A program made the position numbers. Below, piece by piece: positions 29,501 to 32,500 of a stretch of DNA of 64,000 nucleotides. Each line of letters starts with the position of its first letter. Positions within the stretch are counted from its first letter, which is position 1. Origin of the DNA: Candidatus Sulfomarinibacteraceae bacterium (GTDB taxonomy: Bacteria > Acidobacteriota > Thermoanaerobaculia > Thermoanaerobaculales > Sulfomarinibacteraceae); the NCBI GenBank assembly GCA_963796455.1, contig CAWCLO010000010.1:416001-480000 (forward strand), in the 5' to 3' direction.

Positions 29501-32500
29501 CGACGGTGTGTTCAATCCGCCGGGCTCCTGAGGCGGCGGACGATGCATTCTCAACGCATTGCGGTCGCAATCGTCGCGATCCCTCTTCTCGCCGCGACGA
29601 TTGTCTGGCTCCCCGTATGGGCGTTTCTGATCGTTTTGGGCGCCGCAACGATCCTCGCCTGTGACGAATTCCTCGGTATGGCCAGGGAGGCGGGTATCGA
29701 CAACGGTCGGTGGCTTCCGTTGTTGCTCACGGCCGCGCTGTTGGCAGCCTCGTGGTCACATGGAGCCGCAGGACTCGCCACAGCGACCATCTCGACCCTG
29801 CTGATCCTCTCAGGGGCCCGGCTGAGCCACCAACGAGCGCCTCAAGGTGCCTTGGCGGCTATTGCTGCCGAGTCCTTTGCCGTACTCTTTGTCGGATCAA
29901 CCGCCGCCTGTCTGGGTTGGCTTCGACTCTTGCCGGCAGATGGTGACGGGATCCGTCTGATCATCCTTTTTCTGGTCAGCATCTGGGTCGGCGACTCCGG
30001 CGCCTACTACGTCGGCCGCCAGTTCGGTCGCCACAAGATGTCGCCTCGAATCAGCCCCAACAAGACCATCGAGGGGCTGTTGGGTGGAATCGCCGCCACA
30101 ATTGCGGTGGTGTTTATTGGAGTCCACCTGCTGGAGCTCCCTTTCAGCCCCATTCATACCGCAGCGATCGCGACCATTCTTGCCATCGCGGCACCATTGG
30201 GTGACCTTGTGGAGTCTCAATTCAAACGGGACAGCGGTGTCAAAGACTCTTCGACCCTGCTTCCGGGGCATGGCGGTTTCCTCGATAGAACCGACAGTCT
30301 CTTCTACGCGGCGCCTCCGGTGCTCGGTTATCTTCTTCTGGCCGGCCTCATCGGATGAAAAAACTGGCCGTGCTCGGATCCACGGGCTCCGTGGGATCGT
30401 CAACTCTGGATATCGTCGAGTCCTTTCCAGACCGATTCGAGATCGTCGCACTGGCTGCCGGTCATCGTCTGGATGTCCTTCGACCTCAGATCGAAGCCCA
30501 TCGTCCGGCCCTCGTTGCAGTGGCCGAAATCGATGATGCCAAAAGCCTTGCGGCGGAGTATTCCGGCATCCGATTCGTCGCCGGCATGGAGGGCTTGATC
30601 GAAGTGGCCTGCCATCCGGAGTCCGCTCTCGTCGTATCCGCCCTGGTCGGCTCGATCGGGCTCGAACCGACGGTGATGGCGATTCGCGCCGGCAAGGACA
30701 TCGCCCTCGCGAACAAAGAAACCCTGGTCGTGGCGGGCGAACTGGTCATGGATGAGATCCGTCGGACCGGTGTCGAACTGCTGCCGATCGACAGCGAACA
30801 CAACGCAATCCATCAGGCACTGCAGGTCGGACCGGATGATTCGGTCAAGAGGCTCATTCTCACCGCCTCGGGAGGCCCCTTCCGCACCTGGACCGCTGAG
30901 GAAATGGCCTGTGCCACCGTCAGCGAGACCCTCCATCACCCCACCTGGCAGATGGGCCCGAAGATCTCCGTCGACTCGGCAACGATGATGAACAAGGGCC
31001 TGGAGATCATCGAAGCCCATCACCTCTTCGGTCTCTCCGAAGATCGTATCGGAGTCGTCATTCATCCCCAGAGTCTGATCCACTCCTTTGTCGAATACGT
31101 CGACGGGTCCATCATCGCCCAGATGTCGGTCAACGATATGCGTTTGCCGATTCTCTATGCCCTTTCGTGGCCGGAACGTCTTCCCAATAAAGTCCCTGCC
31201 CTCGACCTGGTCTCGGCCTCTCCCCTGACCTTTGAGCAACCCGATTCCGACCGTTTTCCAGCGCTCGGATTAGCTCGTCAAGCCGCACAGAGCGGTGGCG
31301 AGATGCCGGCGGTCCTCAACGCAGCCAACGAGATGGCGGTCGAGGCATTTCTCGAGGGCCGGTGTCCGCTGACCGCGATCTCGGCTACCGTTGAGGAGGC
31401 GCTCAGTCACTGGGCAGGTCGTAATCGACCGCTGACCAGCATCGAACAGGCGATCACCATTGACGCCGAGATTCGCGAGATTGTCGGCACAACATGGAAA
31501 TATGCGGTGGCCCTCGCGGGTTCGGAGAATCGATGTTGACGCTTGCTGCTTTCATTTTCGTTATCGGGGTCTTGATCACTATCCACGAGGCCGGGCACTT
31601 CGCGGTCGCGCGATTGCTCGGAGCCCCAGTTGAAGTCTTTTCGATCGGATTCGGCAAACGGCTGTGGGGCTTTGAACGGGGCGGCACGGACTATCGGATT
31701 TCGCTCATTCCTCTCGGCGGCTATGTCCGGATCATCGGCCTCGGTCCGGATGAGTCGGATGTGATCGGCGAAAGCGAGGCGGAGCCAGAACTGCTGAGCC
31801 GCTGGAAACGCGCCCTGATCCTGCTCGCGGGTCCGGTGACAAATATCCTCGCTGCGGTCGTGTTTGTTGCCCTCGCTTTTGCCATCGGTGTCGAAGTCCC
31901 GGCCTATCGTGAAGAGGCCCCGGTGATCGGTTGGATCGCCCCAGGGTCACCCGCCGAGGATGCCGGTGTTCGAGAGGGCGATGTGGTTCGAGCGGTCGAT
32001 GGAAACGAAATGACCACCTGGGGTGATCTCGAGATATCTCTCCTGACCGCAGGTGGCGGTGAAATCGTGCTCGATGTGGAGCGAGATCACGAGCTCCAGA
32101 AGATTCCCGTCGTGCTCGATCGGGACGAGATCTATGGTTTCGGAATCTCCGGAATCGAACCGAGGATCGAAGCCGTCATTCAGCCAACCTCCGGACAACC
32201 CGCGGCCACCGCCGGCATTCAAACCGGAGATCGCATCCTCAGCATCAACGGTGAAGAGGTCCGACAGTATTACGATCTTCCGCGTTTGGTCGAGCCCCTC
32301 GCCGGACAAATGGTCACCATCGAGGTCGATCGGGACGGCCGCAAGATGCTCTTCGAGTTCGAGACCCGTAAAGAAGGGGACAAGGGCAAGATCGGGGTCG
32401 GACCCCTGTTGCCGACAATGGTCCAGAAACTCGCTCCAGTGGCAGCTATTCGAGCCGCCGCGGTCGAGTGTCAACGCATGACCTATCAAACCTTTCGCGT

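Follow-up and report, generated by a model that had tools for sequence, protein, structure and literature searches.

How does the MEP pathway obtain DXP (1-deoxy-D-xylulose 5-phosphate) in a bacterium without dxs, whose product, DXS, constitutes the rate-limiting step in terpenoid engineering? The question is posed by an intact dxr gene in the window analyzed here, a 64,000-nucleotide stretch of the genome of a Candidatus Sulfomarinibacteraceae bacterium (labeled G000 in the compared set, in which g1, g13, g36 and the like denote genera). The survey's finding was that the family had gained a full mevalonate route in place of dxs, so that either a pathway replacement is caught midway or DXP enters by some other route.

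The dxr neighborhood and the vacant dxs site

The dxr gene (30355..31539, plus strand) codes for a 1-deoxy-D-xylulose 5-phosphate reductoisomerase of 394 aa that scores 460.6 bits against TIGR00243 (cut-off, 315.7) and displays the motifs GSTGSVG, LANKE, DSEH, HPTWQMG, DSATMMNKGLEIIE and NAANE; its product is the earliest MEP step left in this genome. The gene lies in the order truA-uppS-cdsA-dxr-rseP-rpe, with all members on the plus strand. This conserved cluster is opened by truA (27905..28690; TIGR00071, 181 bits, above cut-off) and has the same gene order in G005, G114 and G118. The adjacent uppS (28725..29531; NF011405, 316 bits, and TIGR00055, above cut-off) codes for undecaprenyl-diphosphate synthase, which uses IPP and is essential. 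It is followed by a gene for a CdsA-like phosphatidate cytidylyltransferase (29543..30358; NF008635, 133 bits, below cut-off), which overlaps the start of dxr and serves below as the neighbor control for its dN. Downstream, rseP (31494..33593; TIGR00054, 335 bits over residues 2-425) runs in frame into a PASTA-domain gene (residues 458-684); these are two ORFs in G005, G032, G114 and G118, and the joined frame is either a fusion or an indel error. The ribulose-phosphate 3-epimerase gene rpe (33590..34255; TIGR01163, 265.8 bits) completes the context.

The products of ispE, ispF, ispG and ispH in G000 score above curated cut-offs and contain catalytic motifs. The ispD product falls short of its cut-off (TIGR00453, 170.9 versus 181.3 bits), has its motifs, and is encoded by a gene abutting ispF. 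PdxS is above cut-off, with a PdxT motif encoded next to pdxS, in line with the survey's view that vitamin B6 is made by the DXP-independent PdxST. No RubisCO-like protein was recovered (PF00016 and PF02788, each 0/5; six genomes searched in all).

With TIGR00204 (cut-off, 466 bits), no match in G000 scored higher than 64 bits; a pyruvate dehydrogenase (PDH) E1-beta, a transketolase and a split transketolase-like gene came out on top. In all five dxs-bearing loci, the ancestral site reads xseA-xseB-ispA-dxs; the corresponding site in G000, mid-contig on C8, consists of ispA, 456 bp and an unrelated gene with no trace of dxs. Thus, dxs, which the survey had found to be missing, has been cleanly deleted from this genome, with dxr, ispE, ispF, ispG and ispH retained. 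The mid-contig position of the site excludes an assembly gap as the reason for the missing gene. A diverged or split dxs was likewise rejected: the sole match with both halves is the transketolase-like gene, which sits in a sugar-nucleotide cluster and is 23-26% identical to DXS.

Distribution of the two pathways and selection on the MEP genes

Presence was counted over 119 genomes, including 76 of the family and 42 of the sister family. A dxs above cut-off occurs in 1/76 of the former versus 35/42 of the latter (37/42 counting fragments), which bears out its reported near absence from the family and retention in the sister family. The single family copy, in G033, comes from a genome that had been flagged as 7% contaminated; a foreign origin is opposed by the gene order of its contig, which agrees with that of G000, by its IspA, which is 68.7% identical to that of G000 versus 58-60% to those of the sister family, and by its DXS, which branches as sister to that of the sister family. 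Among the matches listed by a metagenome scan, none was closer than 69-71%. This dxs copy hence looks native. A placement of G033 outside the remaining family is rejected with an AU p of 8e-5 in a one-gene tree from a quick search; if its dxs is vertical, dxs was lost multiple times within the family, and the bypass is old.

The other counts equal or slightly exceed the lower bounds given earlier: dxr in 49/76, ispG in 47/76 and ispH in 28/76 family genomes, MVD in 45/76 versus 2/42 in the sister family, and any HMGR in 69/76 versus 12/42. In G000 itself, thiolase, HMGS, MVD, IDI-1 and a fusion of class II HMGR with MVK are all above cut-off, whereas the remainder of the full mevalonate set ascribed to it is less secure: the second HMGR is below cut-off, and the PMK candidate, a GHMP kinase (TIGR01220, 94.6 versus a cut-off of 165.7), is assigned because its gene abuts that of MVD. 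The stand-alone HMGR gene adjoins one for an ABC1 kinase in both G000 and G005.

A gain of the full mevalonate route by the family in place of dxs is not borne out. MVK and MVD are restricted to 8/24 genera, and 24 genomes in 13 genera, about one-third of the family, have neither dxs, MVK, MVD nor IPK. They keep dxr (23/24), ispG (22/24) and ispH (22/24), with all three together in 14/15 of those with a completeness of 90% or more and a contamination of 5% or less. G005, G032 and G118 hold dxr, ispE, ispF, ispG and ispH, with ispD homologues adjoining ispF; ispE and ispF are absent from the MEP-less G022 and G049. MVD homologues were not found in any of the 24 down to an E value of 1e-15 (the MVK search reached only 1e-35), IPK was found in 0/119 genomes by a search that detected three archaeal controls, and AcnX was found in 0/5 genomes searched. 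The sister-family genus g36 presents the same picture, with dxr, ispG and ispH in 5/5 and dxs, HMGS, HMGR, MVK and MVD in 0/5. Archaeal-type HMGS is found in 24/42 sister-family genomes; as it and the stand-alone HMGR also occur there, they are not gains of the family.

Among the 52 genomes of the mevalonate genera, the lower cassette was detected in 48, compared to 0/24 elsewhere; in the remaining four, neither MVK nor MVD was seen, and the cassette, often being a single locus, can be missed. Here, ispH is present in 6/52 and dxr in 26/52, and 25/52 have none of dxr, ispG and ispH; G000 is one of six that retain all three. A further 18 genomes possess dxr and ispG but lack both dxs and ispH, and ispH was cleanly deleted mid-contig in the 4/4 loci checked. 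On RpoB, the union of the mevalonate genera in a single clade is rejected (AU p = 3.8e-6; one-gene tree, quick search). In G023 (94% complete), neither pathway was seen.

In the dxs-less, mevalonate-less genera, dxr is constrained as tightly as in dxs-bearing relatives. The median pairwise dN/dS, from values that share branches and have a dS often near 1, is 0.09 in g13, 0.07 in g16, 0.17 in g20 and 0.14 in g36, compared to 0.17 in the dxs-bearing g35 and to 0.22 (g1, without ispH) and 0.24 (g18) in mevalonate genera; the first 30 dxr loci taken were those with the highest scores. Relative to cdsA, the dN of dxr is 0.75-0.93 without mevalonate versus 1.14-1.33 in mevalonate genera, and the dN/dS of ispG is 0.09, 0.14 and 0.17 versus 0.20 and 0.25. 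Even where dxs and ispH are both missing, dxr and ispG retain their catalytic motifs, with a dN/dS of 0.20-0.25 at a dS near 1.

A probable supply of DXP without DXS and its rivals

The existence of dxs-less, mevalonate-less genomes with constrained MEP genes, together with the scattered distribution of the cassette, suggests that a DXS-independent source of DXP came first and mevalonate later, repeatedly; we hold this order of events to be highly probable. Of the two possibilities in the survey's finding, the entry of DXP by another route is the one supported; a replacement caught midway describes the mevalonate-bearing genera, G000 included, albeit as a later stage after dxs loss, and not the family as a whole. 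The full scenario that we favor, at roughly even odds (about 0.5), is as follows. A DXS-independent supply of DXP would have arisen before dxs went, possibly through a thiamine-dependent pyruvate/2-oxoacid dehydrogenase E1 whose carboligase side activity would join pyruvate to glyceraldehyde 3-phosphate, a leak that might suffice where vitamin B6 synthesis draws no DXP. The lower mevalonate cassette (MVD, PMK, HMGR::MVK and IDI-1) would later have joined the older archaeal-type thiolase/HMGS, separately in several lineages, upon which the MEP genes would have relaxed and then vanished, ispH earliest. The retention of dxr and ispG without ispH in 18 genomes falls outside this scenario.

The E1 component is a plausible candidate for the DXP source, at slightly less than even chances. 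According to the available part of PMC3424233, E. coli without DXS yields trace DXP, and purified PDH forms deoxyxylulose; single aceE changes restore growth of such strains, the output of wild-type PDH being insufficient. Some E1 is present in 5/5 dxs-less genomes inspected: AceE in G005, G048 and G118 (absent from G000 and from G032, which is 99% complete) and the alpha/beta type in G000, G005, G032 and G118. As the type varies and E1s occur also in the dxs-bearing G109, these distributions do not single out E1. Alignment to 1L8A revealed none of the suppressor alleles Q408R, L633R and E636Q/G in the three AceE proteins, which retain Q408, L633 and E636; these wild-type residues and the inadequacy of wild-type PDH in E. 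coli weigh against E1. The RibB changes G108S and D113G, located by motif, are likewise absent from six RibBA proteins (five from dxs-less genomes, one from a dxs-bearing genome), in which TTG-ISA-x-D-R is intact.

Other candidates were rejected. A transketolase standing in for DXS is not indicated, since the two donor-binding histidine motifs, which bear on such a role, are canonical in 6/6 bacterial-type enzymes. The stand-alone aceE of G118 is no clue, given that 27/53 full-flank aceE loci elsewhere also have no adjacent E2; in 0/80 loci does aceE lie beside an MEP gene. A class II aldolase is present in the MEP-less G022 and absent from G000.

Alternatively, the order Thermoanaerobaculales may possess a dedicated but unrecognized enzyme or short route to DXP (or MEP). 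Its starting compound might, for instance, be a pentose phosphate, or else 5-deoxyribulose 1-phosphate (5'-deoxyadenosine salvage) converted via an isomerase that is not RubisCO-like. The equality of dxr and ispG constraint with that in dxs-bearing kin is more in keeping with a steady supply than with a leak; multiple losses of dxs, if the G033 copy is vertical, would call for an old bypass, and the many dxs-less species left unexplained in the available part of PMC10663253 also speak for it. MtnA, found in 72/73 high-quality genomes, can be counted in its favor; being near universal, it is uncoupled from dxs loss and fails as a marker of the bypass. Moreover, in 35 loci from nine genomes, only housekeeping genes, and no recurrent candidate, were found beside dxr, ispD/F, ispE, ispG, ispH and mtnA, and the sole orphan enzyme, a GHMP kinase encoded near ispG, is also retained in genera without any MEP pathway. 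We regard an undescribed route as less probable than our favored scenario. Were it to exist, it could have permitted the repeated loss of dxs and may serve many other unexplained dxs-less bacteria; in genomes whose IPP supply passed to mevalonate, the dxr-to-ispG segment would then be kept without ispH for some separate use of MEcPP or HMBPP.

An improbable alternative is that the headless pathway is fed by deoxyxylulose, methylerythritol or their phosphates taken up from the sediment community. Uptake would explain selection from dxr to ispH without a new synthase, and it draws on the phosphorylation of deoxyxylulose by E. coli XylB (available part of PMC3424233) and on the orphan GHMP kinase, which by hand count occurs in 20/24 mevalonate-less family genomes and 5/5 of g36. 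It is opposed by the failure to find a transporter or kinase linked to the MEP genes, by the absence of IPK, which prenol salvage requires, from all 119 genomes, and by further free-living dxs-less Acidobacteria in culture, some with hopanoids (available part of PMC5462960). Still less credible is a cryptic mevalonate route, composed of HMGS, the stand-alone HMGR with its ABC1 kinase neighbor and the orphan GHMP kinase, or else an unassembled cassette, with the MEP genes serving otherwise. By hand count, 13/24 mevalonate-less genomes have both HMGS and HMGR, and the limited depth of the MVK search and breadth of the AcnX search leave it some room; but both enzymes are missing from g36, HMGR is found in 0/2 of g16 (96 and 99% complete), and G003 (98%) has no HMGS. 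The null results for MVD and IPK and the confinement of the cassette to its genera also weigh against it, and the terminal-step ispH is retained precisely where the cassette is absent. Finally, the MEP genes might simply be eroding beside a mevalonate route, with no flux through them. The depleted ispH and dxr, clean ispH deletions and raised dN/dS of the mevalonate genera are what such erosion predicts, but we judge it very unlikely, as family-wide it is contradicted by the equal absence of dxs where mevalonate is lacking (0/24; g36, 0/5), by the rejection of the mevalonate genera as a single clade and by the constraint on dxr and ispG persisting without ispH.

Comparison with known systems

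An MEP pathway without dxs is already published and unsolved, Acidobacteria included. Marshall et al. 2023 (PMC10663253), in its available part, lists 181 dxs-less species, 172 of them without a known bypass; the taxa named include Chloracidobacterium, Ca. Koribacter, Luteitalea, Paludibaculum, Rhodothermus and Anaplasmataceae. The genotype is shared, namely, all MEP genes but dxs and no usable mevalonate route. All MEP genes but dxs are found in G000, G005, G032 and G118; G003, G031, G032 and g36 carry fewer than two of HMGS, HMGR, MVK and MVD, while G000 has all four. As that survey calls any two of these mevalonate positive, the 13 genomes noted above would have been hidden from it. It covers complete genomes only, Thermoanaerobaculum is not among its entries, and the selection test and graded loss series available here were not seen in the part consulted. 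Sinninghe Damste et al. 2017 (PMC5462960, available part) reported six cultured Acidobacteria with the remaining MEP genes but no dxs, including, by our reading of its table columns, Thermoanaerobaculum aquaticum of the same order, and proposed aceE as the stand-in; here, AceE occurs in 3/5 dxs-less genomes, with wild-type residues where the E. coli suppressors are changed. A prior report of this family-wide dxs-loss series was not found in our literature search, and in the main text of PMC8528874, which describes the genus, isopren-, mevalon- and dxs do not occur.

The order offers a graded set, from dxs-bearing through dxs-less without backup, dual-route and dxr-ispG only to MEP-less genomes, a comparison unavailable from single genomes, and it would invert the expected sequence of pathway replacement, in that the first enzyme was lost before the replacement came.

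In the E. coli suppressors (PMC3424233, available part), DXP is made without DXS by PDH E1 or DHBP synthase, requiring the aceE or ribB changes that none of the three AceE and six RibBA proteins examined here contains. The MTA-isoprenoid shunt of Rhodospirillum rubrum (PMC10663253, available part; 10.1101/2021.05.17.444423, likewise) is a natural DXS-independent supply of DXP; its upstream isomerase MtnA is present throughout Thermoanaerobaculales, whereas its RubisCO-like MTRu-1P isomerase is absent from the six genomes searched. Listeria and Mycobacterium marinum (PMC13001223) have a mevalonate route beside the MEP route with dxs kept, and Mycoplasmoides gallisepticum (PMC10663253, available part) keeps a shortened MEP pathway ending at HMBPP for an intermediate, again with dxs. 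Unlike these dual or truncated pathways, 18 genomes of the present family retain dxr and ispG in the absence of both dxs and ispH.

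A pathway without its first enzyme

Within the window (C10:416001-480000), the flagged ORF (30355..31539, plus strand) codes for a 394-aa Dxr that scored above the TIGR00243 cut-off in a profile search and lies in the usual uppS-cdsA-dxr-rseP cluster. In this 5.0-Mb, 90.5% complete bin (G000), ispE, ispF, ispG, and ispH also exceed their cut-offs, and ispD, slightly below its own, has its motifs. A six-frame search of the bin did not find dxs (top score, 64 of 466 bits); the best DXS-profile matches were PDH E1-beta, transketolase, and a split transketolase-like gene amid sugar-nucleotide genes. 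The last lies in two frames in a polysaccharide cluster, after an acylneuraminate-type cytidylyltransferase (L001:4617-7219, i.e., C10:384616-387218). In four loci of the sister family and in G033, the sole dxs-bearing genome among the family members surveyed, dxs is found with xseA-xseB-ispA. This block is present in mid-contig on C8 of G000; the place expected for dxs is taken by a gap of 456 bp and then an unrelated gene, and permissive tblastn with the G033 DXS revealed no remnant at that site. The survey's finding of intact later MEP genes in a genome lacking dxs is right. Of the PdxST that it reported, PdxS is above cut-off and a PdxT motif adjoins it; ThiG and PdxJ motifs were not found in this genome.

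In G000, rseP reads in frame into a PASTA-domain gene (window 31494-33593, plus strand). G005, G032, G114, and G118 carry these genes as two distinct ORFs; the join is either a fusion or an indel error. Frame splits also affect the transketolase-like gene (L001) and aroC (L007), which points to indel errors in the assembly. Near-identical ORFs of about 135 aa occupy several intergenic sites (C8:9214-9618, C10:289943-290347, and C1:1108688-1109092) and adjoin short repeated DNA; repeats like these also take up the gap at the former dxs site and window 22030-22650.

Distribution of the two isoprenoid routes across the order

We surveyed 119 genomes of the Thermoanaerobaculales, namely, G000 and 76 others of its family and 42 of the sister family. 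Matching the claimed loss from 75 of 76 relatives, dxs was above cut-off in 1/76 family genomes versus 35/42 in the sister family (37/42 counting fragments), where the five dxs-less genomes constitute a single genus, g36. These five retain dxr, ispG, and ispH throughout and are devoid of dxs, HMGS, HMGR, MVK, and MVD.

G000 codes for thiolase, archaeal-type HMGS, a class II HMGR fused to MVK, IDI-1, and MVD, all above cut-off; PMK was assigned by position. The HMGR-MVK fusion, followed by IDI-1, is at L011:8128-10978 (C1:1211127-1213977); MVD and PMK lie just upstream of it in many relatives, and some genomes have two fusions. The HMGS adjoins thiolase and DUF35 genes (L002:11490-14114, i.e., C4:1266489-1269113). 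A stand-alone class I-like HMGR precedes an ABC1 atypical kinase (L012:6960-10056, i.e., C4:96959-100055), as in G005, and its type also occurs in dxs-bearing genomes without MVK. The archaeal-type HMGS was found in 65/76 family and 24/42 sister-family genomes, none of these 24 with MVK or MVD, and HMGR of any kind in 69/76 and 12/42; the two sister-family genomes with the lower cassette (G085 and G087) lack this HMGS. Since HMGS and HMGR occur in the sister family, and many genomes bearing either also hold dxs, the upper half of the pathway is older than the family. Of the full route that the survey credited the family with gaining, only the lower cassette was thus a gain. MVD is present in 45/76 family and 2/42 sister-family genomes, and MVK is present in 40/76 and 2/42.

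The proposed replacement by mevalonate also holds for only part of the family: MVK and MVD are restricted to g1, g5, g14, g15, g18, and g21-24 and are missing from 24 genomes in 13 genera. We grouped genera by MVK/MVD before counting MEP genes and excluded G033. The 24 genomes have dxr in 23 (partial matches in G001 and G004), ispG in 22, and ispH in 22; of the 15 high-quality genomes, 14 have the full set. Among the 52 genomes of mevalonate genera, the counts are 26, 25, and 6; 25 have none of the three, 6 (including G000) have all, and 18 retain dxr and ispG but not ispH. The same split is seen for ispE and ispF in the five genomes examined. Counts are given without p-values because relatives are not independent, and absences call for caution, as both MVK and MVD went unseen in 4 of the 52. 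One of the g14 genomes (G023; 94% complete, 9 contigs) yielded neither pathway (no dxr, ispG, ispH, MVK, or MVD), probably owing to an unassembled cassette. G003 has two ispG copies with the same neighbors on two contigs (L071 and L072), reflecting duplication or bin redundancy.

Selection and order of events

Nei-Gojobori dN/dS medians within genera are rough, as the pairs have branches in common and dS is close to 1. For dxr (46 sequences), they are 0.09 in g13 (15 pairs), 0.07 in g16 (1 pair), and 0.17 in g20 (1 pair), all mevalonate-less, 0.14 in dxs-less g36 (10 pairs), and 0.17 in dxs-bearing g35 (28 pairs). In mevalonate genera, they are 0.22 in g1 without ispH (36 pairs), 0.16 in g1 with ispH (6 pairs), and 0.24 in g18 (15 pairs). 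Relative to adjacent cdsA, dxr dN is 0.75-0.93 in the first five genera versus 1.14-1.33 in the mevalonate set; an earlier pass on the 30 best-scoring dxr loci agreed. The ispG values (26 sequences, all with intact iron-sulfur cysteine motifs) are 0.09, 0.14, and 0.17 versus 0.20 and 0.25. On these rough measures, where mevalonate is lacking, constraint on the headless pathway equals that on a complete one; where it is present, MEP genes are relaxed yet well short of neutrality, even in g18, in which 0/12 genomes have ispH. A clean deletion, in mid-contig behind aroC, has removed ispH in 4/4 loci. With neither dxs nor ispH in 18 genomes of g1 and g18 (L144-L149, L159-L163, and L168-L179), flux, if any, would stop at HMBPP; the dxr and ispG motifs of these genomes are intact, with dN/dS of 0.20-0.25.

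In a quick RpoB tree (29 rows), mevalonate-less genera occur at every depth of the family. Topology tests on 19 rows, after short and redundant ones were dropped, rejected forcing mevalonate genera together (AU p = 3.8e-6; 4 changes) and placing G033 outside the remaining family (p = 8e-5). The G033 dxs contig shares gene order with C8 of G000, and its IspA is 68.7% identical to that of G000 versus 58-60% to the sister family's. Its DXS is 69-70% identical, and sister, to sister-family DXS, with no closer relative among the metagenome matches listed. One reading has several losses of dxs within the family plus another in g36; the other has an early loss followed by reacquisition at the original site. 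Under plain parsimony, 2 changes suffice. Both readings place dxs loss before cassette gain or apart from it.

Source of DXP and comparison with known systems

No RubisCO-like protein was detected in six genomes, in line with the survey, and MtnA, present in 72/73 high-quality genomes, is too near universal to discriminate. AcnX was absent from the five genomes tested, and IPK, which other mevalonate variants and prenol salvage require, from all 119. Bacterial-type transketolases are canonical; those of two sister-family genomes, G118 (L077) and G109 (L081), bear a long in-frame C-terminal extension, presumably a sugar-isomerase-like region. A class II aldolase gene lies beside a rarA-like gene in G005, G022, G032, and G118 and is absent from G000 there (C1:1102574-1103771) and elsewhere.

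E1 and DXS share hydroxyethyl-thiamine chemistry, and some pyruvate/2-oxoacid dehydrogenase E1 is common to all five dxs-less genomes inspected. For this reason, and because E. coli without DXS makes trace DXP (accessible text of PMC3424233), a side activity of E1 would be the likeliest source of DXP, at somewhat below even odds. Its main rival is a dedicated, as yet undescribed enzyme; the neighborhoods of the MEP genes and mtnA offer no candidate, containing, apart from housekeeping genes, a single orphan GHMP kinase. This kinase, about 5 kb from ispG (L006:1820-2830, i.e., C4:891819-892829), has no NCBIfam name, occurs in 89/119 genomes, and is also kept by MEP-less genera, which speaks against it.

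Unlike the E. coli suppressors of dxs deletion described in that text (PMC3424233), six RibBA sequences keep the G108 and D113 equivalents, and AceE, where present (G005, G048, and G118, not G032 or G000), keeps Q408, L633, and E636. The G118 aceE has no E2 gene beside it, as in 27/53 full-flank homologues elsewhere.

A dxs-less MEP pathway is a known unsolved kind of phenomenon. The accessible part of PMC10663253 lists 181 species lacking Dxs alone, 172 without explanation and several of them Acidobacteria, and names no species of this order. That of PMC5462960 reports that six cultured Acidobacteria lack dxs, with aceE proposed as the stand-in; T. aquaticum is among the six by table column position, the plus signs being lost in the text. 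Parts of an R. marinus preprint (10.1101/2021.05.17.444423) and a review (PMC13001223) give further context, and the main text of PMC8528874 does not mention isoprenoids. The literature searched, which did not extend to subscription papers and preprint supplements, held no account of the pattern in this family. What is new relative to these systems is the graded series within one order with its evidence of selection, the finding that the published explanation by aceE fails here, and a dxr-to-ispG segment kept without head (dxs) or tail (ispH).
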